A stretch of DNA of 64,000 nt from Haplodiscus bocki (taxonomy: Eukaryota): the NCBI GenBank assembly GCA_965655095.1, contig OZ296648.1:142910001-142974000 (forward strand). The letters are read 5' to 3'. Under the pieces are notes generated by a model. That model had not been told where the DNA came from, ran no database searches, and saw nothing but the letters and a program-made list of their open reading frames with translations. Of this stretch, positions 10,662 to 53,399 are shown in pieces. Within the stretch, counting starts at the first letter, position 1. Each line of letters begins with the position of its first letter. The translations under genes were made by a program, and so were the position numbers.

Positions 10662-12134
10662 TGTATACTGATCCGTATCATATACGGATCACTTTAATGA
10701 CTGATCCAGATTGGGACAGAACCATTACAGAACAAACGAATAGTCACAAAGTTTTTCCAAACACGAAGTGCTAGTAATAAACTTCTATAAATTATTCAGA
10801 TTAAATCTACCTTTTTGACGGATAAAAATGATTAACTGGAATGAGTGCCATGCTAGTCGAAAATAGTGATGTTTAATAATTGAGCTAAATTAGCAGCGTG
10901 ACTTAATACAGCGTGAAAGACTGCAAGAAGGAATATTTAGTCCGTGTGTGCTCTATCGCTACTAGTCTGGTGACGTCACAAATATTCCAAATACTCAACT
11001 ACGCCGCGGTGTTGTACTGAATACGGAGTGACTCCGTATTCACTCCTAATTCGCCTAATATGAACACTGCTTGAATGACTTTGGCTGACGCTACTACAAG
11101 CTTCGAAAATTCTCTGGAGATTACTAGTTGTGCTACTAGTTTCTCCTCCTCCATGACAATCAAATACTGCCGCACAAATGAAATACTGTAAATGAGATGT
11201 CATAATCACTTTTTACTAATAATAAAATATGAAATTCTTTTTTAATACTAAAGCCATACATTTTTTATTTTTTATTTTTATTCCTCCTGAATAAGGAAAT
11301 CTTTAACTTTTCCCAGTTATGGAATATTTATTATTTCGCTTGTAAATAAAAGACGGTGCGGGATTGAAATTCTTGATGTCCATCCCAGACGGATTAGGTC
11401 CGTCCTCTTTCTCTGGAAAGATAGAAGAGACGCGTCCTATGGGGAAAGAGATGGTGGAAAGGTTGATTATTTCCCACCAGAGTCGAATTTCCGCTTTAAC
11501 TTTTAATAATGTAAGTATTTTTCCCTGTTTGTACCTTGCCTTGGCGTGTGAACAATTATGTTTCCCGCCAAGGAAAAGGTATAAATAAGATAAATGAAAG
11601 TACAGCGGACCACATTATCTGTACTAATGCTGTAATGCTGGCGTATTTCTTGAAAATTTGACTCTCGAATTTTTCCAATTATTTGAAAATATGAATTGTT
11701 AATTCAGTCTTAAAACACTGCTAATTACTTTTCCTTTCTTCAAAAATGGCAACTCTGAGAAAAAAAGAAAGTTAGCAGCCATCAACAGGGATAATCATGA
11801 CGATCATCCTAGGAGTAACCAGGCTAGAAACACAAATTCTCCTGGAATCCACGAAGATTTTATTACTCATGTGTCAGACGAAAATGAGGGCAGAGTGACA
11901 AAGAAACTGTCCCAGGAGTTCAGTGAGACGTAAAGTTGCACTTTGGGTGCCTTATCACAACTAGATGAATTTCTTTTAAACTCACAAGCCTGGGCTCACT
12001 CCGGACCCGTTCCGGAGACATCTCGGAATTTAAGTAGCGAAAACCAGGGAGCGAATGAGGACCGCTCCCAGAATGGTGGGGAGTCTCTTTAAGCCAATCT
12101 TGGCATGATTTAAGCCCAGAAGATACCTCTTACA
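10662..12134 (+). mobile_element. Solo LTR (copy 1) of the Gypsy family at 27.8-41.5 kb
   Basis: TGTA...TACA termini. Collinear with 40048-41531: CTGATCC..ATTGGGAC, GGTGACGTCACAA (10969), CCCGCCAAGGAAA..GGTATAAATA (TATA 11580), then a decayed MATLR..KRKLAA ORF from 11746. No matching TSD seen. Confidence 0.85.
11746..12134 (+). pseudogene. Decayed LTR-encoded ORF (putative Gag N-terminus)
   Basis: MATLR.KRKLAAINRDN...EGRVTKKLSQEFSET*SCTLGALSQLDEFLLN, homologous to ORF 41126. Confidence 0.8.
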
Positions 12135-27770: not shown

Positions 27771-27774
27771 TTCC

Positions 27775-28900
27775 AAAAGAAGGCGCGCTCCACAAGTCAA
27801 CCACAATTTCGCAGTGAGAATACTCATGAGACAATTGAAGCAGACCAGGTTTTGTTGGCCTTTCAACAATTGGCGACGAACAGTAATTCAGCCAAATTCA
27901 ACAAAGAACATCAGTAGAATCTCGCAATTGCCTAAATCCCTCACAACAACAATGGCCACTTTTGATGTGAAATCAGAAAAATTCGGACTGTTTGAAGATC
28001 TATTGCAAACAAGTTTGGAAATCCCCAATCAGCTGACAGAAAAAGATAAAATAAACTACTTCCACTCTCTCATGCAAGGTGACGCACTGCAAACCTTCAA
28101 AAACATCGCCAGCCCCAACACAGAGAATTTGGGAGAAACCCTGACTGTGTTCCGTAGAAAGTACGTAAAACCTCAGTCAGTGGCTACGGCAAAACACAAA
28201 TTTCAACAACTGGTCTTCTTTCCCGCAAACCAGAAGTTAATTGATTTTCTCGATGAACTCCAGAAATTGGCAGAAGACGCATTCGGAGTTGCCGCTCAAG
28301 CGATCATCGAGCAATTCATCCATGCCAAAATGCCTGGTCACCTGAAGAAATCAATTAACCAGGCACATTTGGAAATTGGCACATATGAACAGATTGTGTC
28401 GCATCTTGAAAGAGAGTTGGAACTAAATGGTTTGGAAGCCCGAGGTGAAATGCCAATAAACACTGTGACGCAACAAGCCCCTCAGCAAAACTCCGAAAAG
28501 CCCAAAGCAACGCGCCACCATTGCACAAAACCAGGACAATAGCAAAATCAGTGCCCACAACTCAAACGAGAAAAAGTCCAAACCCGAAATAATCTTAATA
28601 GTGCCAACAATAACAATGGTAGTGCCCAAACAAACTCCAACCCCAATAATAAAGTTTCAAACAATACCAAAGCAAACAATACAATTAATCAAGGAGACAG
28701 AAGCTCTAGACCTGTCTTCCCACCCTGTGAGACCTGTGGTAGCACTAACCACTCCACAGAGAAAAATTACCTTGGAGCAAACGCAGCAAACAGACCGCTT
28801 CCCCGGAATAGAATACCGGAAGGACAAAACCAAGTCCAACAGAGAAATGTTCAAAGCAACTCAGATGGGAATGTCCAAGCTGCAGCCCAAACTTTAAACT
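27775..28900 (+). pseudogene. gag: gag (5'-truncated) with two decayed zinc knuckles
   Basis: MATFDVKSEKFGLFEDL...KINYFHSLMQGDAL capsid-like region; RHHCTKPGQ*QNQC (~28512) and CETCGSTNHSTEK (~28726) knuckles. Confidence 0.85.
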
Positions 28901-29369
28901 AGCCACGCCACGTCTTCACTCCGGAGCCGCATGTGACAGACCGGAGACAAATGAAATATCAAAACTCCCAACAATTCCCGAGGTTGTCTGGCAGCAACCT
29001 ACGGAAACAGTTACAGAAAACCATAACTTACATAATAATAATAATAACTCGACTTTAAAGACAAATGTCGCAAACCAAACGTCGCCACTCGAGAGAACCC
29101 AACCACAGAACCACGTAGCCGCCACGGAACAACCTTCACGAAATCAAACAGGGAATGAGCCAGTATCGTTCCTTAACTGCTCCTTAATTCCTCTACCGAT
29201 ATCCAAAATACAGAACAACGTGTAGTGACTACCCCTAACGGAGATACAAAAAGTCCACCTCTCACCACTGCAACCCCACTAATTTAGGAAGGGTTGGTAA
29301 GAGACGAACAGACAATCTAGGTATATCTCCCATTAACCTCTACAGTAGTCCTGAAACGAAAGCAAGAAA

Positions 29370-32300
29370 TGCTCTATGTGCCTCTGGATTTTGAGAATAT
29401 TCTTACGGTAGATGCTCTGGTGGATTCAGTAGCCTTTGTCAATGCACTTGCCCAGGATGACTTGGACACAATAAAACAGAAATCCCGAATAATATTCTCA
29501 AAATAGACGACACTCCCGATTTTCAAATACAAGTAGCCAAAGGCTAATTAGAAAAACCATTATCAACAGCCACACTAAAATTTGAAATTGGAGATAATAT
29601 CTTCGTTGAACACTTCGTCCTAATGAAGAAAAATGACAGGGCCAATCTTTGGGTTGCATTTTATGGGGAACAACAGTGTAGTCGTTGACACGACACACGG
29701 CCTCATACATTTTCCACACTTGACAATGCAAATTAAAACAGCCTCAAGTGAGACCACAACAAAACCACAGCCAGTCATCACTGACGATGCCCTGGCCCTT
29801 GTCGACGACAAGAACAATCATAGCCTTTGTTGACCATCCGTCAAAATGGAACAAAAGGGGGACTGTGACACCGTTGGAGAAGTTTACGGAAAAAGCAAGT
29901 TTGCTGATTTCTCATTCAATGTCAACAATATTGACAAAAGAAAAGCAGTCAGAGTAACCAATGCAACGGAATCACCATATCTAGTCAAAAAGCACACACA
30001 CATTGCAGAGTTCTCCGTGGTTACTCCGGAACAATCCAAGCACATCAAACCAGTAGATATGGCAATCCCTAGTATGATTCCACAAGGTGATCCCGACCTG
30101 ACTGCCTACCTAAAAAACTTCTCAGAACGAATAACCCCGAGCAACAACACAACACATTCTGGTTCCCAACACCTGAAAATTCTGGAAAGCCTGAGGATCA
30201 CACCCCAATACAGACAAGAGACCTCAAGGAATTGAATGAACTCAAGGACAAGGAAAAACTCAATCCACAAGAGAGCACAGAATCTCGAAACAAAATTTCT
30301 CAAACAATTTGATTGGACTGACACACTCTTTACAGAAACGGCGAAACAAGCAATTGAAGATATTCTGGTTGATTATCATGACATCTTCGCCAGACAGAGA
30401 TAGGATATTGGGATGAATACGGAGTTCAAGGTAAAATTAACTCCCAAAGACGACAAAGCTGTATATAGCCAAAGTCTACCAATGCCGAGCCACCTGAAAG
30501 AAAACCTAATTGTCGAATTAGCCCTAATGCACAAATATGGAATCATCACAGTACTGCCTTTCTCCAAGTACGCGAGCCCCATATTCGTACAAAGGAAGCC
30601 CAACGGAAAATTACGTTTCATTGTGGATCTCCGGAAAATCAACAGTCTGATTGCGGATGACTACACTAACAACAATCATCCAGTTATCACTCTATCGGCG
30701 CAGCACAACATTTGACTGGGAAGTCCCTGTTCTGCAAACTAGATTGCTCCCAAGCTTATCACTGTTTGCAGATGGCGGACCAACGGTCAGTGGAAATGCT
30801 TACATTCAATTTTGCTAGCGGAACTTTTGCCTATAAAAGACTTGCACAAGGTCTTAGCAGATCTGTGTCTGCTTTTTCAAGTTTGATGCGTGAGTACTTG
30901 GACCCAGTCGTCCAAGCTGACCAATGTGCTCAATACGTAGACGACATTGGAATTGCAGCCATTAATGCTACGGACCTTACCCGGAACATTCGGGCAGTCT
31001 TCAAGTGCATTTGCCAAGCAGGATTGAAGCTGAAAAAAGAAAAATGCCATTTTGGAGTCAGACAAGTTGGATTCTTAGGAGGAACATTTTCACCAGAAAG
31101 ACTATCACCGCCAGCTCGGAAAATTCAAAATTTCCTTGACAAACTTAGATTCCCCAAATCAAAAAAGGCATTACAGCGATATCTGTGTTTCGTTAACTAT
31201 TACAGAAAATATAATCCCATACTGGCTGAAAGACCTAATCCGTTCTACAGATTGCTTAAAACGGAAGTGCCAATCATTATTACGTCGGAAATGAAAGAAA
31301 CATTGCCTTCACAGATTCAGTCAATAAGGCTTTCAGTGACGCTTGCCAATTAGCACTTAAATAACCCATTACAGGAAAGCAGCTTGTCTTTATGACGGAA
31401 GCCAGCTTCAGAAGTGATGGATATGCCTCCATGATCGAAGACAATCCCGATCAGAAAATACAATCAAAGCGGAAAACGTACGCCCCAGCAGCGTTTGGCT
31501 CAAAAATTTTCTCCCCTGCACAACTCCAGATGTCCACATACTCAAAGGAGTTTTTGGCAGAATACATGGCATTTCTAGAGTTTGCACACATTCTGTGGGA
31601 AGCAACAAAGCCAACATTTCTCCTAACAGACAACAAGTCAGTCACACGTTTTTTCCAAACAAAGCCACTTCTGCCAGAACTCTGGAATGCATGTGATTAT
31701 GTGTAGCAGCATAACTTCGAATTAGCACACATTGCTGGCCCAGTCAACACTGCAGTTGACTTTCTCTTCAGACTTGAACTTAAAGTCACGGAGAAGATAC
31801 GTCTCAAAATCCGGGAAGATATACAAACAACACCTATCGAGGTGACCACCTCTTCCTCGGATGTCGCTGATGAAGAACAATTATTCTTCAAGCAAGCAGA
31901 CAACAACGTTGACTCAGAAGACCAAACCCTTGAAGGAAAAGAGCAACCTAAACAAAATGCGAAGCAATGGGCATTGAATGAAGAATCACTCGTCTTGCAA
32001 ACGAGTGTGAATGAATTCACAAAGACCGACGGAAACACTACGTCGTATTCCATGAACGGAATTAAAGCAAATGCGAGAATACGAGGAGAGCAAGACGTCG
32101 ATCTTGTGCTGAAGAACATGGAATTGAAAATCTTAGGCCGACTTTAAGATGAAGTATTAATAATGACAGACTCACGATACCAAAATTACAAAGCAAATGA
32201 AGACCATATCTTTCTTAAAGATGGTCTATTGTTCAGGAAATATTTTGGAGAAACAGGTAGCATCAAATACTACCAAACTCTCATCCCAAAGTAATTAGTT

Positions 32301-33754
32301 AATGAAGTTCTGAGCAGCCTACATGGAGAATTCGGAAAACACTCCAAAACAACAACTGCTTACAGGGAAAAATATTTTTTTCCAAAAATGGCGCAATTAA
32401 TCAAGGAGTGGGTCATGTCATGTGAGCAATGCATTAGAGAATCACGAACTAACCGTAGCTTTTTCCGCCCTCCCCTGCAAAACTCAAATGAGCACATTAC
32501 TGCGCCCGAAGATGCCATGCAAATTGATTTGGTTCCGGAATTACTGCCATCTGGTGGCTATGAAAACATTGTGACAGCCATGGATGAGGTTCATTTGCAT
32601 ACCCGACATCAAATCAACACGCTAAAACAATTGCTGAAGTCTTATTTAACATAATGACAAATCACGCGTACATACCAACGACGCTCATCTCAGATAAAAG
32701 TACAGCCTTTATGTCTCATGTAATTAAAGAAGTGGCCGACGTCCTTGGTATTACTCCAAAGCACGCCACTACAAAGCACGTTCAAACAGTTGGGTTACTT
32801 CAGCGATCTCACGCGTCAATCAAGCAAGCATTGAAGATAAAGACAGGCGAGCGGAGATCACTGTGGCACAAGTACGTCAACATTACAATACTTCCTCAAT
32901 TACAATACTTCTTACCACACAAATATTGGTCGTGAGCCAAGTTGAGCCTTTCACGACCGTATTCTTTACAACAGTTTGGACTTAAAATTGGGAATTCGCC
33001 CACAGCAACAGCCCATTCCTACTTCGCAATTATCCAAGATGCTTTTGATCAAACAGAGATGATCCATCAAGATATTCGCAAGAATTCCATCCAAGCATAC
33101 ATTAAATACAAGGCCCATTATGACAAAAAAGCCAACGCTTCAAAACTTAAAGAAACAGATTTTGTATACATCTTGCAACCGAAAGCGGATCATCAAGGCA
33201 GCAAAATTCCATTCACAGAATTTCGATGGATTGGCCCATATATTATCGAAAATGTATTACCCAACAATAATTATTTGGTACGCAAAATTGGCACCAACAA
33301 GACGCAAGTACTTCATCGGATGAGAATGCGTCAGTTCACACCCCGCCAACCACCAGCTGACATAAAAGTCAAGCCTCCAGAATATAAATCCGATCCCGAA
33401 GTGAGTATTCATCAGGACGATTTATATGGAAGGGTGTGGGAGTATGACTTTGAGCAGCCAATTTTCGACGCGGAGAACGATAAAGCGGCACCACCCAATC
33501 TTGAAGAGATTCCACTACAGTCTGATTATTCAACAGAGGAAATGAGGAACACACCAGGAAATCCATATGTCTGTTCCCCGGAGATTTTACCATGCACAGA
33601 CGAGGTCACTGACGTAACAGATACGTGTCCACATATGGAACCTGATGTGGAGACAAGCTCGGAACAACAGGAAAATAGTCCAACTAACCCCCGCAGTTCC
33701 AAATACAACTTGCGTCATAACCCGAAGCCTAACTGCAATGACGACTACCGATAG
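29370..33754 (+). pseudogene. pol: pol: protease, reverse transcriptase, RNase H, integrase (multiple stops and frameshifts)
   Basis: ALVDS(V)A protease; SPIFVQRKPNGKLRFIVDLRKIN, LDCSQAYH, LAQGL and YVDDI (RT); TEAS...EFLA...TDNKS (RNase H); H..H..CEQC, MQIDL, ISDK and WIGPY (integrase). Confidence 0.95.
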
Positions 33755-34785
33755 TAGTTTGTCCGCTCAACAAGTGTGTTCCACGTAACGCGCACCTAGC
33801 CGTTCCAAATTCAAGGAGCGCGCTACGTGGCACATACGTGCCAGTCCAAATTTCTCACACATTCTATTCTGGATATTCCCTGGTGACTAACTCACTTGCT
33901 ACTCAGTCTGGAATACTTCAAAACACGGCCACTGTGTCTCTACAGCTTACATCAAATATAAAGCTTACTACGACAAAAAATCCCAACGCTTCAAATCTCA
34001 AAGAAGCCGATTATGTATACGTATTACAGCTGAAAGCGGATCATCAAGGGCAAAAATTTCCCTTTGCAGAATTTCGCTGAATTGGCCCGTACAATATTCA
34101 AAAGATGTTACCTAACAACAATTATCTGGTAAGCAAAACTGGCACCAACAAGACGCAAGTGCTTCACTGTATGCGGATGCGTCAGTTCACACCCCGCCAA
34201 CCACCAGCTGACACACAAATCAAGCCACAAGAAGATAAACCCGATCCGGAGGTGATCCTTAAACACGGTGATTTGTATGCCAGAGCGTGGGAGTATGATT
34301 AAGAGCAGCCAATTTTTGAAGCCAAAAAGAATAATGCAATGCCACCCAACTCAAACGAAATTGCAGTGCAGTCTGATTTTTCAACGCAGGAAATAAGGAA
34401 CACACCAGGAACCACACACGCGTGTTCTTCAGAAATTTTTCCTCAAACGGACGAAGTCAGTGACGTAACAGATACGTATCCACACATGGAACCCGATGTG
34501 GAGGAAAAATCGAAACAACCAAAAAGCAGTCCGACCAACCACGCAGTTCCAAATACAACTTGCGTCAAAACCCGAAACCTAATTGCAATGACGACTACAG
34601 ATATTAGCTTGTCCGCTGAACTAGTGTGTTCCACGGAACGCGCACGTAAACGTTCCAGAAATTCAAGGAACGCACTACGTGGCACATACGTGGCAGTTCA
34701 AATATTCCGCATATTCTATTCCGGATATTCCCTGGGGACTAACTCAATTACTCTTCAGTCTGGATTACTTCAAAACACGGCCACT
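33092..34785 (+). repeat. Diverged tandem duplication (~850 bp) of the integrase C-terminus and 3' flank
   Basis: AYIKYKA.YDKK..ASxLKE..WIGPY...CNDDYR* plus CAAAACACGGCCACT occurs twice (33092-33932 and 33943-34785). Confidence 0.92.
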
Positions 34786-35000
34786 AATACTAAATTCATC
34801 AATATTCTCGTTTTCTCTACACAGGCCGCATTCACTTTATCCATTATTCCTTTTCTCTTTTTTTCTCTGAACTTTTGAACTAACGAAAACAATATATACA
34901 ATGAACATAATGAAGACAAAACAATTTCATGCAGTAGAGAGGCAGAATGGCAATAAGCAACGAGTGCAGCAGTTATCAATGACCGGACAGACAATAGCAG

Positions 35001-38000
35001 TCATGGCATTCCTCGTTGAAAGGCTGGCGTAGCTTTTCTATCTCGCCCACTTTTCCGTGTTTTTCCTTGGGGACGTTCAGATGCCAAGGCAGAAGCAAAA
35101 CTGGGATCATCGACAACAGTGCGTTTTCGGGAATTGAAAGAATGACTTGAAACCTCAAACTGGCGCGGCAACTTAACTGGAATCCGAACCACTCTCTTTT
35201 TTCCCTTTCCTGGAGAAGAAGGATGACGACTATGTCCAGCAATCTCACGGGACGGAGCAGCACCGGGCACATAATCAACTTGCCCCCCTTCCACGACTAT
35301 TGAAAGGCGGACACCATATCGAGAAGACGATAGATGGCGGCCGCACAGCACTCAGAGCATACCATTGTTCGCTGGTACCCTTAACCGCACGACGACGATC
35401 AAGTGCCTTCTAGAAGCATGTCCTCAGATCTGCAATGATCTGGGCCGATGACCCGCTTTCCACCTCTGACCACGAGGCACAAAGGGAACTGCTAGTGATG
35501 CTGTCAGAAATTGCAGTAGCCTCAGAAAGCATTGCGACAGCCGTCTCTGAGAAGAAGCTGCGCTGCGTGAGAACAGGATCTCTCACAAAATCCTGAACAC
35601 ACAACAGGACACCGCGCACTTTTTCCTCCCTGATAACCACCCGATCCAAGTTTACCGTAAACCTCTATCCAGATGTTACTGGTCCACGAATGGCAAGTGC
35701 TGTTAATTGAAAGACCAAAAACAAACATGATTGAGCTAGAAGTTGCAACAAGATTGAAACCGCACTTTTGGAGACAATACATAGTTTATACAAATGGCGC
35801 CGCACACGAAAGCCAACCTGTGAAGAGCAGAAAGTCAGGACGTTCCCTACGTCAGGGCGGCTCTTTGTTGAAGTCCGCTCCAGCTGCCTCTGCGCCTGCA
35901 CGAACGACTGGTACTCTGACTTGCAGGCTTCCATCTCTGCCCCCTCACCCATATTTTCTCCAACAGTCCAACAAGCAACATGTGAAAGAGTTGCATAGGA
36001 GCATGATCGTCTCCACCAACCAGAATGGGGGGCCAAAACAACTGAACACTTGGCCTATTGCGGACCTTGCGGCAACAGTCGACAGCACACAGTTAACGAA
36101 GTCCTCCAGGAACTTCCTGCAATCTCGCCCGAACTCTCTCTTTAGGTGGGAACTTCCCTCTTTTTCAAGAGCTGATGACACCCGAGTACCAGCAAGGAAA
36201 CGATCTTCTTCGATGGCAGCAAATTTTGAGTGATTAGGAGCAATGTACTCCTCCCACTGCTCAACTGACGGCAAGACGCTGCTGTTTGATTTCCTGAAGA
36301 AGACAATAAACGAAATGGGCGACTTCACCGAAGGCGTAGTACCCATAATCGGCAGCGGACTGAGAATGTACAAAAATGTTGGCAACTGAAACAGAACATA
36401 CGTCACAGACATGGTAATGACGTCAAACCCACCGGCAATGTGCCAGTGCCACGATTCTCCAAATGCAACGAAAGAAAAAATGTGGAACCAACAGGGAGCC
36501 ACACTAAAGCGTGCCTAGAAATTTTGAACAGATCATCCGGAACGCCACGTTACCGCTGACTCGAAAAATGAAAAGTGCCTATGTACTGACATATTTCAAG
36601 CAGAATGTGGAAGACACGGAACTTCAAACGAGCGAGTTGGTCCAGATAAAAGTAACCATCCATTCCCTTTTTCTGAACATCACAATTTCAATTTAAATGG
36701 GTACGACACAGTGGCAATAAAATCAAAGAGGGAGATCTTACCACAAAACAATTGCCGTCATCTTTCCGCCCAGCCTCCTTCAGGTACGAAACAATCAAAG
36801 TCCACGCTCCCACAATATTGGCCACGACGTCGACGAGCTCGGGCATCACAAGGCTGCTGCTGATGATGGCTTTCTTCAAAGCTGGTCGAGAAGCCATCCC
36901 GTCACGACTCTCCACCCCCTTCAGCTTGTTCACAATGAACTCAATCATAGAGTACGGGTCCAGAGTTCCGAAATCTCTTGACGCACTCTGTCACAAAGAA
37001 CGTTTGAAAAGGCGCAAGTCAAACAAGCGATACTCGATCAGTTTTTGCTAATATTCACTGCCCAAGAAGTTTACGTAAGCTTCCACAAGTGCATGTTGAC
37101 CGCCCTGCATTGACAACACACGATCATCTGAACCAATTGCGTCAAAAATGCGTCCCAACATAACCACCTCCTCAATTACATTGCTGCTGAGCCGATCAAG
37201 AATTGCCACACACAACCGACGAAACTGGTTGTTATCCCAGCATCGAATGAACACCCAGATGTGCTCGCCCTGCTCCGCAAACTCTATTCCGCAATAGCCA
37301 TGTGCCTTTGTTCAAGGAACACCTTGCTCAAAATGCGGGGGTACATGCCATTGAGGATGATTGACTGAAAGCAAAACAACAATGTACAACGGGGATGAGT
37401 ACGTACAATACGGCAGACGAAAAAAAAATATTGTCAGTTGTCTCAAATGTGTGAGGTACAATACGCGGCTAGCTCTGTTCCATGCGTTCCACACGGCCCA
37501 AAACGTCATCTAATCCTGTGAACAAAGAAGCAAATGATTAACACACGCCAAGGAACGTACATGGATGGTACGGCAACAAAACTTACTGCTCATTATTGGC
37601 TGCAGAATTTGTGCCCTCTCCTCGGCGCAGATCGACCCCCAGAAAGTCACAAGTTGATGCCCTGTTTCCTCAATTGGAGTCACTACAGGGTCGTTACTGA
37701 AATGATCTACAACAACAAAGACAAAAAGGAGGAGCAATCATGGAACGCCACAAAAATATCCCCATCTGAAGTGATACATACCATTGTCAAAAGCCTCTTC
37801 CAACAACTCTCGACTGCGTTCGTGGCTGCTCACTGGCAAAAGGCACTGGAGCAATACCAGCCAAGGGGACCAAGCGCCGTGTCAAAACAGCACGTCGTCG
37901 TCGAACCTGGCTTTGTGTCTCAGCTTCAGTCAGGATGTCATCACAATCAGACGAAATCATACCAGCTTCACTGATGCTTATAACATACAAAGAAGATTCA

Positions 38001-38732
38001 ACTGTCCCGAACATGGCCAAAACAATATGAGATATTGTTAAAAACTTGATGCACAACCCATGGGAGATCTTTTTTCAAGACTGGGTACGTCTTCATCACA
38101 AGATGTTGCACGTCCCACCTCAAACTCACTTCCGGAATCACCCGGAACATCAGCAAAAGCATCGTCAGGAAGAGCAGCAGGCTCCCTGGCAGAATCATAT
38201 ACTAAAACACAAAAGCCCCATGATGCCATCTTCATGTTTGGGCGCGCGCTGGTCACTAGCTGATGGAAAACATAGATGGCCTCTGTGTTATTCCTATATA
38301 AAAACTAACGAGAATGAAGAATGCAGACTCACACAATGGCAGTTCGGATGAACCGACATCACCCTCCAAAACAGTTTCTGAATGCAGATTCGCACGCATG
38401 AGAACATCATTGAAAATGAAACCCTCAGATTCTGCGCCCTCATCTCTTTGATCGCCGCCAACCACGTCCAAAAATGAATCCTCGGCGTCATCGTCTGCAC
38501 CAGACACAGGCTCAGTACCACAAATGGTATTGTTGCTGAACAGCTCTAAAGCTCTCCGAACGCACTCCTCTCCTTCTCTTTCTGCAACATCGAAACTGGG
38601 GACAAATGGGAGAGCAAGGGACAAACTCTTCTCTACTGCTCCTTCATCAATCTCCAATGCCCCTTCTTCATTAACCTCGTCCGCAAACGGGGATGTCCTC
38701 CTCACTTCTCCTTCTTCTTCGATCGAACTCAT
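35001..38732 (-). pseudogene. Antisense, intron-containing accessory gene(s) of unknown function inside the Gypsy element
   Basis: Chain of minus-strand ORFs from an acidic N-terminus (MSSIEEEGEV, 38732) to a basic C-terminus (KGKKRVVR...FQRGMP*, 35001). A GT-AG intron at 36741-36673 (GTAAGA...TTCAG) removes an in-frame stop. A second at 36432-36386 (GTGGGT...TTTCAG) joins frames. Confidence 0.7.
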
Positions 38733-39157
38733 TATTACGAATAATGAATGACCTGGATATTGAGCTATTACATGGTGGATTTACATATTTTTTCAAAAAC
38801 TCCTAAATATTTTATTAAAAATCTGATTAATTTGTCTGCCAGCAATTATGTCAGCAGGCTTTCTCAAAGACACCTTGAGGAACGATACTCAAGTGTTCCT
38901 TAAATTTAGAGACTCCATTTTTAAGATTTGTTTACATCTCATCAACTCGAACTTCACTTCCTACATCCTACCTTCACCGATGCAGAGCAGCGGCGCGGGA
39001 ACATCAAAGCAAATCCCGCTTCATGAAAGTGGATTATCATTACCCGCAACCCTGATCATTCTCTCATTTTTCACTTGTCCAATTCAGTTGCCCGATCAAG
39101 AAATTATCTAAATTTCTTCTTAAATTTAACCTTTCCTCTAATATTTCGATCGATTCG

Positions 39158-39854
39158 GTGGATTCTGATGTGTTCTTTGTGGAACAAATCTCCAATGAGC
39201 CCAGTCCACAACGATACAACTCCCCGAACATCCTTAACTCGACTGAACTATCGCAGAATCATACAGCAGGAACGCCCTCAGATTCCTCGATCGCATTCAC
39301 AGAACCCCAAATTTTGACCATCAATAACATCTCCAATGAGCCCACAATGCCATACGGATTTGGACGGCAGTTCCCAATCGTTCCACCGAGCTTGAATGAC
39401 CTGAACTTGCCGCCCAATCCATTCAACATCCTGGCAATAATGGTGGTGGTAAACCGTATAGAGGATGGAAAAAACGACAATTACAGCCCCCAGTCACCAG
39501 AGCCATCTGATCCATCGCCCATATCAACACCACCCATGAATGTCAGTACATTTAACAGTTGGGGAACACCGCACAGCACAACTGACGACAACCCCCTTCG
39601 ATTCGGAGGACGAGCCACGACGTGTATACTGGACTTCTTCCCTAGATGAAACCTTTTATTCGGAAGGCGAACCCAGACAAATATACCTATTGTCCAGTCT
39701 ATCACCGCCGTCACCCCCTCGCAAGATGAAGAGGAAGTTAGAGATAGGAATGTCCTTTCCAAAAAGAGGGGGAGTGTCGCAACACGTCTGCGAAGCCTGC
39801 GTTCAGACGATCCCCTCAACAAAGGACGTCCCAGGTCCATCAAACAAGGATTAG
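39158..39854 (+). pseudogene. Sense accessory ORF: S/P-rich, probably disordered protein with NLS-like and CxxC motifs; one frameshift near 39595
   Basis: MDSDVFFVEQISNEPSP...TTDDN joins FDSEDEPRR...PPSPPRKMKRKLE...HVCEACVQ...NKD*. The first codon in this copy is GTG. Confidence 0.65.
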
Positions 39855-39951
39855 AACTTTGAAGACATTCAAACTTACTTATGAACTATTAAACTTATGA
39901 ATTCATCCACTCAATTATTTATCGCATCATGTAATCAGTAATTTATATTTA

Positions 39952-40073
39952 GGATACGTAGTAGGTACGTATCCACCTACTATTCATACATGTACTTCAT
40001 GTAGACGATACGTAGTAGTTACGTATAGTCCCATAATGTTTTTTCCATGTAGAAAGCACGTATCCGATACGTG
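39952..40073. other. Cluster of four short perfect hairpins at the 3' LTR boundary
   Basis: GGATACGTA-gtagg-TACGTATCC (39952-39974); TACATG-tactt-CATGTA (39987-40003); ATACGTA-gtagt-TACGTAT (40008-40026); CACGTATC-c-GATACGTG (40057-40073). Confidence 0.9.
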
Positions 40074-40328
40074 TAATCCTGGTGAACTGATCCTTATTGG
40101 GACGGAATAGATACGGAGCAAACGAATATTCACTGTATTTTTATATTATTTTCAGGTGCTCTTTATATAATTAAGGTAACTAATTAATATATAAATCCAC
40201 CTTTAATTGTGCAGTAAGTTATTTATATTGACGGTTTTAACAAGTTTTCAATATTTCGGCTATTAGAACAGAGCTTGACTTTAAAAGTGGATATCTGTTC
40301 CGTATGTGTTCCGTCGTAAATAATCTGG

Positions 40329-40336
40329 TGACGTCA
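40329..40336. promoter_or_regulatory. CRE-like palindrome TGACGTCA in U3
   Basis: Perfect in copies 1 (10971) and 2; TCACGTCA in copy 3. Confidence 0.55.
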
Positions 40337-40933
40337 CAAGAATTTCAGCCAATCCGCTGTGCTTCTACGCTGTTTCACTTTGGACGGACACGGAACGTCT
40401 ACGTAGCTAGCAGAATCATTCTCCTCAGTAGCACTGCGGAAAGCAGTGCTACAAGCGGCTACGTAGTCGCCACGGAACGCTCCGGCCAAAGTGAGGCGTG
40501 AGCTTGTAGAAACGTGGAAAGAGCTAGCAAAAAGCCTATTTTTGTTCCCTACAGTGGTTTAATTGATGCAGCGTTTAAACATGGACCTTTTTAGCATCAT
40601 AAACTTTACTTTTTCATACATTAAACTGTTTTTTCCACTGTACTTTAGTATTTTCCCTGTATGGAAATTTATTTGATCTTTTGTTTATGTTTTTTTTATT
40701 GTGTCGGCGCGGGAATAACCACTTTGATGTCCATTTCCGACGGATCGGACCCGTACTTTTTCCGTCGAAATATGGAAAAGACGCGGTCCGTGAAGGAAGA
40801 AATGGGCGGAAGGGTGTTTATTTCCCGCCAGAGTCGGCATCTTTTCCTTTATAAATATTATGATTTTAGTACTTTTCCCTATTTGTGCCTTTTTTTTGGC
40901 GTGTAAACAATTATGTTTCCCGCCAAGGAAAGG

Positions 40934-40941
40934 TATAAATA
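40934..40941 (+). promoter_or_regulatory. LTR TATA box
   Basis: TATAAATA conserved in all three LTRs (11580, 40934, 47190), 165-190 nt upstream of the LTR ORF start. Confidence 0.75.
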
Positions 40942-41125
40942 GGAGAAATTAAAGTACTATTATTATTATATAAATTGTAGCTTTTCGGTGTTGTACCATT
41001 TATAAAATGACTTGACTAATTGTATTCATCGAAACTCTTTTCCCTCATAATGAGAGGAGATCAACACTATTAATCAAAGATAAAGATCATAATTCAGTCT
41101 TCATCGCTGACAAAACTTTTCCCTG

Positions 41126-41531
41126 ATGGCAACGTTAAGAAATAAGAGGAAACTAGCAGCAATTTTGAGAGAAACACATGAAGGCACTAGAAGCAGTAGA
41201 GCGCAGAACGTACTTGACCGTGAATTAACTCAAGATTACATCTCCCAGGTCTCTGAGGAGATCGAAGGCAGAGTAACTAAGAAACTCTCAAAAGAATTTA
41301 GCAGAACGGAGTCACGTATCTTGGGTGCCTTGTCAAAGCTTGACGAGTTTCTTCTGAACCCACAAGTTCGAACTTGTTCCGCAGCTGTTCCGGGAACATC
41401 CAGGAACAATAATTCAGAAAACCGGGAGACCACTGGGGATCGTTCCTCAGGCGATCCCTACCCCGAAGTGGGGTACTTTTCTCACCACTCTGGTCATCTT
41501 AACAGCCCAGAGGCAGAAATCTACCCTCACA
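41126..41531 (+). CDS. LTR-encoded ORF, putative Gag N-terminus (about 135 codons, open through the LTR end)
   Basis: MATLRNKRKLAAI...YISQVSEEIEGRVTKKLSKEFSRTESRILGALSKLDEFLLNPQVR...YPH. No stop before the terminal CA. Homologous in all three LTRs. Confidence 0.75.
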
Positions 41532-46285: not shown

Positions 46286-47784
46286 ATATAATTAACTTAC
46301 AGATCACCCCCGTGCACTGATTCAGATTGGGACGGAACCGTTACCAAAAATAAAACGAATACTCTTTTAGTAAATCTTTCTGATTTTAAGATCTGCTCTT
46401 TTCAAAATTGTTTGTTTTCTTTTAGCATAAATCCACCTTTTAAAAAGAGCTAACGTGGTGTATTATACTTAAATTGACGCAGTTAATGAGTTTGATCAAT
46501 AGCATCTACAGCTAGACGGAAATAACTGTAAGAATGAAAATTTGTTCCGTAAGTGTTCCATCGCCACTAATCTGGTCACGTCACACTAGAAATCAATAAA
46601 ACTGCTGTGCTACTACGCTGTGTTAAAATGACCAAATAGGATAGAGTTCGTATTCTTTCTTTTCACTCATTCAGCATCACTGCTACTAGCAGTGCTGCAA
46701 GTTAAAACGGAGCTGATCTAGAACGGGCCAGTTGAAACGAGGAACTTACTAGTACGAATGAGGAACAGACTAGGTACTCTACTAGTTTCAGCCTAGTTTG
46801 TACCTCAAATTTTGCGCAGTAAGTTGGCAAATAATTTTTCATACTCAAACATGAAATACTGAACTTTTTATTGTAATACTTTTATTTTCACTCATGGAAA
46901 ATTTAATACTTTCTAATTTAAAAAAATCTTATGATGTATTTTTTTTATTAATAGTCATTGGGTCGGCATTGGAATGAACATTTTGATGTCTTTTTTTGAC
47001 GATTTAAGCCCGCATATTTTTTGTCGGACGATGGAAAAGACGCGGCCTATGAGAAGGAAAAAAGATGGAAAGGTGTATGCTTCCTGTCGGAAATGACATT
47101 TTCCTTTTTTGGATCAAAAACAAGTACTGTTCCCTACTTTGTTTCCTGACTTCGTGTGTAAGCAATTGTGTTACGCGCCAAGGAAAAGTTATAAATAGGA
47201 GAAACTAAAAACTACTATTCGGGATCAAGAATTTTAACTTTATTATCAGTTGACTGTTCAGATTGCGAACAGTTGTTCATTTTAAAAGAATCACAATTTT
47301 GTTTTGATGTCGAGTTGAAATAAAAATAACAAAAATTTCAGTATTTACCACTGCTGGGCATTTTCCCTTCAAAAGATAGCAACATTGAGAAACAAGAGAA
47401 TGTTAGCAGCTATTGCTGGAGAAACCTAAGAGTAACATCCCAGAAACGCCAAAAAACGAAACATATCCAATCCTAGAATCAAGGAATACTACATACCCCA
47501 GGTCTCTGAGGAAATAGAAGGCATGGTCACTAAAAAACTGTCCCAGAAGTTCAATAGGCCAGAGTCCCGCATTTCGGCCGGTCTTTCTAACCTAGACGAA
47601 TTTCTGCTGCACCCGCAGGTACGGAAACAATACGGAACCATTCCGGGAACATCCCGGAACAACGAAATGAAAAACCAGGAATCAAACGAGGATCGTTCCC
47701 AGAAAGCTCCTCGTCCTGAAGTGGGGTCCTCCAACTATCTGTCCCATCATTCAGTCGATTCAGACCCACACCAGGCTCCTCACA
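46286..47784 (+). mobile_element. Solo LTR (copy 3), 5' end eroded
   Basis: Same landmarks as the other copies; TATA at 47190; ORF start mutated to ATA (47376); YIPQVSEEIEGMVTKKLSQKF...LDEFLLHPQVR; ends CCTCACA. Confidence 0.85.
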
Positions 47785-49924: not shown

Positions 49925-50071
49925 GTTATTAATACATCTATTGGTTTTGAGATTTTCCACTGCAATGCTTCTTTTTAATGCAATGCGTATCGCAACCCAA
50001 GTGGTTATGAAGTTTATAGTGTGACTATTGGAATTTCACCGAAACGGTAAGAGAGTTGATCAACAAACATA

Positions 50072-52829
50072 CTCTTTAAAACTGGCGCGTGCAAAATTGC
50101 CTGCAAACGCAGGTAACTTTACCTGTAATTCGCAGTTAAAAAGGTCCCACACGCAGTTTACCTGCGTTACATGCAGTTTACCTGTAAAACCAGGTAAATT
50201 TACCTGCGTCGAGGCGGCAAGCACCTCGCGCAGAATACACGCGAATTGCCTGCAGGAGCATGTACCTGAATACCACAGGCATTTTACAGGTAGCTTTACA
50301 TGCGCAACTCATGCAAATTTGCCCGCGACTAGCATGCAAAATTGCCTGCTTTTGCAGGCAAAAATACATGCACTTACAGGCAAAAACACTAGAATCGCAG
50401 GTAAAAATACCCGCCAAACGCAAGCAAAATTAACTGCAACCGCAAGAAAAAATACCGGCACATTCGCAGGCAAAAAAACCTGCAATTCCACGCAGAATTA
50501 CCTGCAATTGCAGGCAATCTGCTACGACACCGCGGGTAAATTCACCTGCAAATTGCAGATAAGTTAGCCTGCATCATGCTGGTGAAGTTAGCTGCAACTT
50601 GCGTGCTTTATTTAGTGCTATAGCGTGTATTCTGCGTGGGGTGCTTGCCGCGTAGAAGCAGGTATAATTACCTGTTTTTACAGGTAAACTGCATGTGGGG
50701 CCTTTTTACCTGCGAACTGCAGGTACAGTTACCTGCGTTCGGAGATAATGCAATCTTGTCGAAAATCTATCGTTACTTGCGGCAAAACTAGAAGAGAAGA
50801 CGCACAAACAAAGGACGTAAAGTTGCAATGCATTGCTAAAGCTCATCAATCGATATTACAAAATCCTCTGGCTAAAAGTTACAGGCACATTTAAAGAACA
50901 GACGAGAAAACCCCTCAGACTAAACATCAAAAAAACTTGATGTCGTCAGAAAAGAATAACAATTGAGCAATTCTTGCATATTTCAGTCCATACAGATACA
51001 GATATGAAGTCAACGAAAGAAGCCATTTTCCAACAAAAAACTCCAAAATCAATCCATTCGTGGTCAAATCACTTTTGAAATCCAGTTGCAAACGTTTCCG
51101 TAAAAGTGCAATACAAGAAAACTTCAATCTAGAACCTGAAACACAGCCGAAAAAAATTACTCCAAGAACCGAGGCAGCTATATTCATTAATACAAAGAGA
51201 TGAAAGAGAACTTGTATCCCATTTCCTTCCTTTATATCTGAACAAATTTTGAGCACTAGGTCCAAGACGTGAATGCAACTCAAAATGTTCAAGTTCTTTC
51301 TAGTTTCCGCCAACCAAAAAACATTTCCGGCAACATCGGGGCCACCAACGAGCAGTTGCAGTAAAAGGCTCGATTATTATTTTTGAAAAAAAAACTATTG
51401 CAGTAAACGGAGTAGAACATCAACAGACAGTTAACATAAAAAAATGAGAAAACGGTTCATATGGTTTTCAAAAGTATTAATTGTTATTTCACCAATAATT
51501 GTGACAAAAGGCACACTGGAAGACACCCTGACATAGGGAGTAAAGTTGAATTGCATTGTTAAAGCTCATCAGTCGATATTAGAAATTTCTATAGCTGAGG
51601 AGAATGGGCACATTTATAGAAGAGACCAGAATACCCCTCAAACTAATCATCGAAAAGATTTGATGTCGTCAAAAGAAAAGCACACTTGAGCAATTTATGC
51701 AAATTTCAATCCATGCAGATATGAAGTCAACAAAAAAGCCATATTCCAACGAAAAACCCCAAAATCAATCCATTCATGGTTAAATCACTTTTGGAGTCCA
51801 ATTGCAAACGTTTCCGTAAAAGTGCAATACGAGAAAACTTCTACCTAAAACCTGAAACAGAGATGAAAAAAACTCATTCGAACAAACGATGCAACTTTTT
51901 CCACCAACACAGCGGAAATGAAAGGAAACTGTATTCAATTTCCTTCATTTACCTTTTAACAACTTTTGAGCACCAGGTCCCAGAGATGTATGTATCTCGA
52001 AAAAGTCAAGTTTTTTCTAGTTTTTGCAGGCCAGTAACACATTTCCCTCTTAGGCAGGGCCACCATTGACAGGTTATTTAATTGTGTCCGCTAACATGTA
52101 TCAGAACAAAAACATTACAGTAAATAGAGTGGAGCAACAGAAGCCTCAGAAATTTGAAAATTGGAAAACGGACTAATTGGTTTCCAGAAGTAATCAAAGA
52201 GTTGTATCATCACTACTCGCGAGAAAACTAGATCATAAGACGCCTAATTATAGGAAAAAAAGTTGCTTCGGAGTGATAAGTCTACTAGTTTTGCATCGGA
52301 TAAAAGTTGTCATTGTGATTTTACTTCACCATTTTTAGTTTCAAATTGCTTTAAGTTACATTTTTATGTAGTCCTATAAGATCCTTTTTTACGTTGTTTC
52401 CTCTTTAGATTTAAGTGACAACAGCCAGTTCCCGATCATTTTGATGGCAGTGAAGACTTTTTCAGCGAGCTGTTTTTTTGGATAACGGTTTGAAGAGCCA
52501 GCAAGGAACACTTCAACGTTTTTGGAACAAAATCAAATTTGAATGGTTCACCATTGACTTCAAAGGCAACAAATGGGTACTTTGGTCAAGGTGTTTGGAA
52601 CTGGATAAAAGGAAACGTCCCGAGGTTTGAAAAAATCCGCCCGGAGGCGAACAATAAAAACTTCATGTGAATTACCTGCGGGCGCAGGTAAATTTCCGCC
52701 AGTTACGCGCGGAAACCGCAGGCAACCGTTACCTGCGGAGATTTTGCCTGCATCCGCAGGTATTTTTACCTGCGGATCAGTTTACCTGTGGCCTTCGCAG
52801 GTAATTTTGCACGCGCCAGTTTTACAGTG
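50072..52829. mobile_element. CACTG-type (CMC/EnSpm-like) non-autonomous element ends with TACCTGC subterminal repeats
   Basis: Left end TA|CTCTTTAAAACTGGCGCGTGCAAAATTGCCTGC; right end GCAGGTAATTTTGCACGCGCCAGTTTTACAGTG|TA (33-bp TIR, 3 mismatches). Dense ACCTGC/GCAGGT repeats at 50072-50740 and 52670-52829. Confidence 0.75.
50765..52270. repeat. Diverged tandem duplication (~720 bp period, two copies plus the start of a third)
   Basis: AAAGTTG..TGCATTG.TAAAGCTCATCA at ~50819 and ~51542; TTGCAAACGTTTCCGTAAAAGTGCAATAC at ~51086 and ~51802. Confidence 0.9.
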
Positions 52830-53399
52830 TAGTAAAGTGCTCGAAGCCACTTGACACTGAATTCAGAAACAAATAAAAAATCGCCTCCATACGTAAAAGG
52901 AAACTTTTGCAAGGAAACAATCAATAAACTAATGAGCTGCATCAAAAGATATCGATGCTCTTCTCAATTTTCGAACAGTTCCAGTTAAACTGACCTTGAA
53001 GCGTCTTAGGCCTCAATCTTGAACCAACAAAGTTGAACCATTGAAAAGCAAATTTTTGTAATTTTGCGTGGATAGTTTCTTATTTTCAAAATAAATAGTG
53101 CACGATAAGAATACAGTGAAAACAAATGTGGTTGAGAAACTATTCCTGATGAGGAGAACGAACACGAAACATAAACATCTAATTAAAGCGAAAATTCGAG
53201 ACTTTTCCTCAAACAATTTATCTAGGACTATACTTTCTGCTATACAAACTTCCAGCCTCGTTCGATTTTTATACGATGATCGAAGAATTCTGAGTAAACT
53301 TCGTCCAAAAAATTGACAACTGTAGCAATTCAGGAGGCTAATTAACTCTTAAAAGAGTTACAATAACAATAGGCACAGTCGCACTGCGATATTTTCCGT

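Follow-up and report, generated by a model that had tools for sequence, protein, structure and literature searches.

A predicted nine-exon antisense gene, probably of hAT origin, in an animal Ty3/gypsy retrotransposon

An antisense open reading frame between pol and the 3′ LTR (aORF-3R) has been described as gene23 of maize Grande and in rice RIRE2, Silene Retand, and PvRetro13 (PMC7264820, PMC11963269). The cited sections of these papers state that aORF-3Rs lack similarity to other transposons and that the origin and role of the antisense genes of LTR elements are open; the word intron does not occur in the main texts (PMC7264820, PMC11963269). An antisense extra gene, brtn, has also been described for Boty/BcGypsy1 of Botrytis cinerea (cited in PMC7264820, PMC8365987, PMC4227169). 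According to the sections cited, the extra ORFs of Ogre and Retand elements encode a plant mobile domain (PMD) or Transposase_28, and PMD proteins act in gene regulation and silencing (PMC6317226, PMC9289625).

The cited parts of two papers on extra ORFs of animal elements (PMC6431247, PMC5408684) do not include such an antisense gene among those described. Full-text searches of the openly readable literature listed no paper on an animal gypsy element with an antisense, transposase-like gene of several introns. Here, we describe a Ty3/gypsy element that carries a predicted antisense gene of nine exons. Its introns were likely kept by their orientation, and its product is probably a catalytically dead hAT-type transposase that would now serve as a nuclear DNA-binding regulator.

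The host element and its antisense cassette

The analyzed stretch of 64,000 nucleotides (the window) comes from the largest contig in an animal-type genome of 1.5 Gb. It contains a decayed copy of an LTR retrotransposon on the plus strand (27774–41531), which is assigned to Ty3/gypsy by the order of gag followed by pol (RT, RNase H, and integrase). The 5′ LTR and the start of gag are absent. A gag remnant (27950–28542) matches Retrotrans_gag and DUF1759, both below the curated cut-off, and pol (28812–33754), whose domains are in gypsy order, is broken by stops and frameshifts. A tandem duplicate of the integrase 3′ end (about 850 nt; 33944–34785) is present only in the window copy among those compared. 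The element ends with a polypurine tract (39760–39774) and a 3′ LTR of about 1,760 bp (39775–41531; TG..CA). The window copy is dead; in addition to the lost 5′ LTR, the broken gag and pol, and the duplicated integrase end, it carries several frameshifts and lacks about 580 nt at 37421–37429.

The comparison set comprised 29 close copies (subfamily A), 10 copies each of subfamilies B and C, 20 of subfamily D, 13 of subfamily E, and one metagenome locus. Among ten subfamily-A copies fetched with flanks, five have both LTRs at full length (89.8–98.2% identical) and span 14.0–15.5 kb. Four of these five are framed by 5-bp target-site duplications, and the fifth matches in four of five letters. 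A TGG-starting stretch (primer-binding site) follows the 5′ LTR in four of the five copies, and a purine tract precedes the 3′ LTR in all of them. In subfamily E, two of six copies combine 99.3% identical LTRs with 5-bp target-site duplications. One metagenome contained four related loci, one of them with the full layout, and no relatives were found among viral contigs.

The start of gag lies about 400 nt inside the LTR (window 41126–41531), and its frame crosses the LTR end and the primer-binding site. Elsewhere in the window are solo or partial LTRs of related families (10919–12077 and 46524–47784), which are 65–80% like the 3′ LTR, and an element (50070–52831) that is bounded by 41-nt terminal inverted repeats, contains repeats with a period of 22 nt, and has a MATH-domain frame at 138–884.

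The region between integrase and the 3′ LTR, which measures about 6 kb in the window copy and lies inside the LTRs, contains on the minus strand a predicted gene of nine exons and eight introns that encodes about 1,170 amino acids. In the cross-subfamily alignment, it extends from an ATG at 38732 to a stop codon at 35003–35001. Exon 1 (38333–38732), which begins with the ATG and encodes an acidic, Ser-rich sequence, is separated from exon 2 (38046–38201) by intron 1 (38202–38332; 131 nt, phase 1), whose interior is unusually conserved. Intron 2 (37978–38045; 68 nt, phase 1) has one splice site degenerate in the window copy and precedes exon 3 (37782–37977), which is frameshifted there; intron 3 (37707–37781; 75 nt, phase 1), exon 4 (37587–37706), and intron 4 (37516–37586; 71 nt, phase 1) follow. 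Exon 5 (37430–37515) is a remnant in the window copy, which lacks about 580 nt including the zinc finger and the intron-5 donor; intron 5 (37365–37429; phase 0) is likewise a remnant, with its acceptor.

Exon 6 (36742–37364) is predicted to encode an RNase H-like core followed by the beginning of a helical insertion, and its best fold match is Hermes. It is followed by intron 6 (36673–36741; 69 nt, phase 0), exon 7 (36591–36672; 82 nt, KKGMDG..LLEI), and intron 7 (36386–36590; 205 nt, phase 1). Exon 8 (35785–36385) is frameshifted and intron 8 (35716–35784; 69 nt, phase 0) has degenerate splice sites in the window copy, whereas exon 9 (35001–35715) runs to the stop codon and encodes a basic C-terminal tail. 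The exons measure 379, 153, 195, 120, 650, 624, 82, 605, and 714 alignment columns, which amount to 3,522 nt or 1,174 codons, and the intron phases (1, 1, 1, 1, 0, 0, 1, and 0) close a single reading frame. The ORF products found for cassette copies are all fragments that read through introns, and such cassettes escape ORF-based annotation.

Head-to-head with the antisense gene lies a sense ORF3 (39056–39862, plus strand), whose Ser/Pro-rich product has a basic patch and a C-terminal CxxC. It is broken in the window copy and uninterrupted in other copies, where it comprises about 250 amino acids. ORF3 is a conserved orphan without a match in Pfam and reads through the polypurine tract into the 3′ LTR. 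The conserved spacer between the two divergent genes (38733–39120), which carries the motif TGACGTCA in most subfamilies, is likely an internal promoter region. The spacer is also the best-kept part, the contig depth there is 30-fold above the surroundings, and the TGACGTCA motif recurs in the LTR.

Splice sites and coding constraint

An earlier note on the locus had proposed two antisense introns, at 36741–36673 (69 nt, GTAAGA..TTCAG) and 36432–36386 (47 nt, GTGGGT..TTTCAG). Both stretches are present as written, and they fall within two of eight predicted introns, of which the note had missed the other six. The first of them, intron 6, is borne out by the other copies of subfamilies A–D, in which its GT is kept in 67 of 69 and its AG in 62 of 69; it keeps phase 0, and both it and intron 7 have GT..AG ends in 14 of 14 more distant loci. 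Its length varies from 66 to 76 nt and its interiors are unlike between subfamilies, while the flanking peptides DGDSLV and KKGxDGY are kept. The expectation that GT/AG ends are conserved and interiors diverge across copies was confirmed in the five subfamilies. For all eight introns, GT or AG is kept in 7–10 of 10 and 18–20 of 20 copies of subfamilies B, C, and D. As a control for chance, 2 of 48 GT and 2 of 18 AG dinucleotides inside the window introns are kept at 90% or more in 40 distant copies. The donor and acceptor words of the antisense gene resemble those of a host ValRS gene.

The second proposed intron retains its acceptor at 36386 (AG in 66 of 69 copies of subfamilies A–D) but not its donor; the conserved donor is located at 36590 (GT in 66 of 69), after LLEI and at phase 1 in every subfamily. 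With these ends, intron 7 has phase 1 on both sides and joins LLEI to ANNF via one F codon. It is 205 nt long in the window, 174–217 nt in subfamilies A–D, and 147–443 nt in subfamily E, and it encloses both the 47-nt stretch and the supposed exon. GESWHWHIA lies in the interior of intron 7, and the joined peptide that the note proposed is wrong. A 47-nt intron behind a coding exon GESWHWHIA is hardly credible: the GT at 36432 is kept in 50 of 69 copies (24/29, 10/10, 10/10, and 6/20 in subfamilies A, B, C, and D) and reads GTGAGT in 12 of 29 subfamily-A copies, yet the presumed exon (36514–36433) has no coding signal (pN/pS 0.75–1.13 in all six frames), differs between copies by lengths that are not multiples of three, and gives way to tandem repeats in subfamily E; a stop-free cassette exon ending at this donor is found in only 3 of the 51 copies with the GT (70 examined), each time at a different place, and the window copy lacks one. 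The GT at 36432, which belongs to a well-kept intron end, may be a non-coding alternative donor, as judged from its conservation.

The same note had called the introns very short, which is true of six (mostly 66–79 nt) but not of intron 1 (about 131 nt) or intron 7 (up to 443 nt). In four tRNA-synthetase genes of the host, by contrast, 9 of 11 gaps between exon matches measure 0.95–15 kb, although these gaps may hide unmatched exons. Two other intron boundaries, an intron 7 ending at a later TTCTCAG and an 87-nt intron preceding an LWLPVGST exon, were dropped after comparison of distant subfamilies.

Some intron sequences are conserved above the level of the exons (about 60–65% identity), namely intron 1, with 72–78% between subfamilies, and the final 47 nt of intron 7 (36386–36432), with 91% among subfamilies B, C, and D. 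In subfamily E (L121–L140), intron 7 has expanded from 147 to 443 nt via tandem units of about 59–65 nt (e.g., L129:7567–7891), each with a CTAGGAG..CTCCTAG inverted repeat that is a candidate signal in the genomic-strand RNA or a candidate binding site. A search against Rfam gave no match near the gathering score. Intron 1 folds no better than shuffled sequences, and for intron 7 only a subset of the copies (z down to −4.9) folds better than these.

The antisense exons are under purifying selection in all five subfamilies. Alignment gaps between subfamilies C and D occupy 0–4% of the columns in exons 2–9 versus 3–46% in introns. In the frame predicted by the intron phases, pN/pS is 0.23–0.41 in exons 4–9 and 0.53–0.69 in exons 1–3, at a pS of 0.52–0.81 between subfamilies, and stops account for at most 0.6% of the codons. 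The predicted frame has the lowest pN/pS of all six in nine of nine exons between subfamilies B and C and in eight of nine between C and D. The exception is exon 2, in which a sense frame has the lower ratio between C and D (0.59 versus 0.69), yet contains stops. Amino acid identity between the five subfamilies is 52–81% in exons 5–8 and 37–72% in exon 9.

Four sequencing runs covered introns and exons alike, as expected of DNA, and contained no clean splice joint. A contig of run X3 that skips 66 letters at intron 6, with unclear letters in between, was set aside because no such joined junction is present in the assembly.

Fold and probable origin of the protein

The product of exons 1–4 is acidic and of low complexity. 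Exon 5, in copies that have it in full, encodes a basic patch and a BED-like C-x2-C-x16-H-x5-H finger, which is kept in the five subfamilies. Searches with the antisense protein against Pfam returned no match, including to hAT, BED (zf-BED), and the C-terminal dimerization domain (PF05699). The structural model of exon 6 (pLDDT 59, pTM 0.40) consists of a helix, three strands, a helix, a strand, and a helix, followed by further helices. The ten best rows of a Foldseek search with this model are all Hermes (hAT) transposase (best E 1.7e-3, probability 0.97), and none reaches an E value of 0.001. In a wider structural search over 48,161 chains, the top rank also goes to Hermes, with 152 residues aligned at a Z of 5.4 and an rmsd of 13.7. 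The alignment places model positions 6–208 on Hermes 156–353, a register in which exon 6 would hold the catalytic core together with the first part of the insertion; the core alone superimposes on Hermes with an rmsd of 4.3 over 92 residues. The model of exons 8–9, which reads through intron 8, has a pLDDT of 35, and its likeness to the dimerization domain is by eye only.

The spacing of landmarks is also similar to that of hAT proteins. With landmarks set by eye from the predicted strands, which makes the comparison partly circular, the spacings are 170, 57, 26, 62, and 279 residues versus 167–175, 65–66, 28–29, 65, and 245–275 in four hAT proteins. By the first spacing, 170 residues separate the zinc finger from the first putative catalytic position. 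Together, the weak fold match and the spacing suggest that the protein is probably of hAT origin. A young-looking hAT family occurs elsewhere in the genome; it has an open frame of 624 codons, with equal scores at G000:C1:51727663–51727860 and more than 15 other places.

All subfamilies share an acidic residue at position 28 of exon 6, in the first strand. In a register set by eye from the predicted strands and the Hermes ranges, the second putative catalytic position is occupied by Q, Q, S, H, and S/V and the third by E, E, E, G/V, and P in the five subfamilies, and the CxxH and RW motifs are absent. With neither CxxH nor the second and third acidic positions conserved in this register, the gene is not classified as a hAT transposase. 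The protein would work like a disarmed hAT transposase that has lost its catalytic residues. The finger, the basic patches, and the strong constraint point by analogy to a nuclear DNA-binding role.

The explanation we favor, with moderate confidence, is that of a nine-exon antisense gene whose introns were kept by their orientation and whose product, a catalytically dead hAT-type transposase, would serve as a DNA-binding regulator in the nucleus. The gene probably goes back to the insertion of a hAT DNA transposon with introns into the retroelement, which would account for the presence of introns inside such an element. The protein, in turn, could bind the DNA of the element via its zinc finger and act on transcription or silencing, for which, by analogy, the chances appear close to even. 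A more specific version of this explanation is tentative: a whole DNA-transposon gene would have been domesticated backwards, introns included, and the disarmed hAT protein would bind the internal promoter, the LTR, or the intron-7 hairpin repeats of the element as a transactivator or anti-silencing factor, as part of a divergent accessory module of two genes, which subfamilies would exchange as a unit by recombination.

It is possible, if rather unlikely, that the same architecture and the same reason for intron survival apply to a protein that is not of the hAT type, i.e., a captured host gene, a member of another DDE family (Mutator/IS256-like), or an orphan with an RNase H-like fold. A link to hAT at the sequence level is absent from the Pfam results and from all further comparisons: none of five hhalign comparisons with hAT profiles scored above shuffles (the family alignments are shallow, Neff 1.5–2.5), nor did any of 40 local comparisons and an HMM search against 18 hAT proteins, and a sequence search of the PDB gave no match below E 0.47. 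Moreover, a Z score of 5.4 is within the range of common arrangements; in the search with the core alone, a ribosomal protein ties with Hermes (Z 5.6 versus 5.4) and the transposase of ISCth4 (IS256 family) also aligns (Z 4.6). However, no chain other than Hermes aligns along all 208 residues, the first ten ranks of Foldseek are all taken by Hermes, and the distance from finger to core fits hAT.

An active, albeit diverged, nuclease or transposase that aids integration or recombination of the element is improbable. Such an activity would agree with the strong constraint across the whole core and the invariably acidic position 28 of exon 6, but not with the variable second and third positions or the lack of CxxH and RW; moreover, the element has its own integrase and makes 5-bp duplications. 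Even less probable is a nested DNA transposon that was passively amplified and has no function for the retroelement; most copies, among them that of the window, are broken, and the trees of cassette and integrase disagree, yet the amino acids and all eight pairs of splice sites are kept while synonymous sites are near saturation between subfamilies, and none of 54 loci selected by the cassette has it apart from integrase.

Intron survival and comparison with known systems

In 40 of 40 loci of subfamilies B–D and 14 of 14 loci of subfamily E, the cassette is enclosed by the LTRs and runs tail-to-tail with integrase; these loci were picked by the antisense gene alone, so that copies without the cassette do not enter the count. 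The gene thus has the position and orientation of an aORF-3R. Young copies retain introns: the subfamily-E copies with 99.3% identical LTRs and 5-bp target-site duplications keep introns 4–8, the five checked there. The donor junction of intron 6 is found unspliced at 1,044 genomic sites versus none joined, and no joined junction of intron 7 was found genome-wide (the unspliced control count refers to intron 6 only).

The loss of sense introns during retrotransposition is, according to the section cited, the basis of retrotransposition reporters (PMC12786077). The eight predicted introns were likely kept because of their orientation opposite to the genomic RNA, the template of reverse transcription. 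By this known mechanism, the plus-strand genomic RNA would show the spliceosome only the complement of the splice sites, so that the cDNA keeps the introns; a separate minus-strand transcript would start in the conserved spacer beside ORF3 and be spliced and translated. The backward orientation would also keep the polyadenylation signal of the gene out of the genomic RNA.

The earlier suggestion that introns opposite to the genomic RNA survive fits all the tests, but its corollary that the introns explain the orientation is not established. Orientation accounts for intron survival. Antisense extra ORFs are also the rule in Retand elements, in an account whose main text makes no mention of introns (PMC11963269).

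Integrase, exon 8, and intron 7 yield conflicting trees, a pattern expected from template switching (mosaics L108–L113, L094, and L176), and the B–D identity is 0.90 for integrase and 0.66 for exon 8.

Retroelements are expected to lose introns; this family points to a route by which an element can acquire a gene with many introns at the DNA level and retain it indefinitely in reverse orientation. The family provides a concrete donor (likely hAT), at least 1,000 copies for evolutionary analysis, and a testable protein.

As far as the aORF-3R elements are described in the sources cited above, they share with this family the position and orientation of the gene, its presence in most copies, and a long pol-to-LTR region with tandem repeats, as well as a proposed nuclear or DNA-binding role and an own internal promoter (shown for Grande and putative in this family). 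The family differs from them in its animal host, the eight predicted introns, the size of the product (about 1,170 amino acids), the head-to-head sense ORF3, and the fold link to a known family of DNA transposons. The brtn gene, as described in the cited passages, is likewise an antisense extra gene in a non-plant Ty3/gypsy element, but a fungal one; brtn of Zhao et al. 2011 reportedly bears introns. The hbz gene of HTLV-1 is a spliced retroviral antisense gene, which is short and starts in the LTR.

Hermes (PDB 4d1q, 8edg, and 2bw3) and ZNF862-like hAT proteins (P0311–P0321) have the succession that is predicted here, of a finger and an RNase H-like core that leads into a helical insertion, with similar landmark spacing. 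The protein described here, by contrast, is only 10–15% identical, does not conserve the catalytic and CxxH residues, has an acidic N-terminal extension of about 280 amino acids and a basic tail, and is carried by a retroelement. The extra ORFs of Ogre and Retand, according to the sections cited, are similar in that domains linked to DNA transposons occur as extra ORFs of gypsy elements, but the domains are others, plant-specific, and not a whole transposase body. Intron-based reporters, as outlined in the section cited (PMC12786077), follow the same rule, whereby intron loss is confined to introns that share the sense of the genomic RNA; in the present family, the arrangement is natural and eight-fold.
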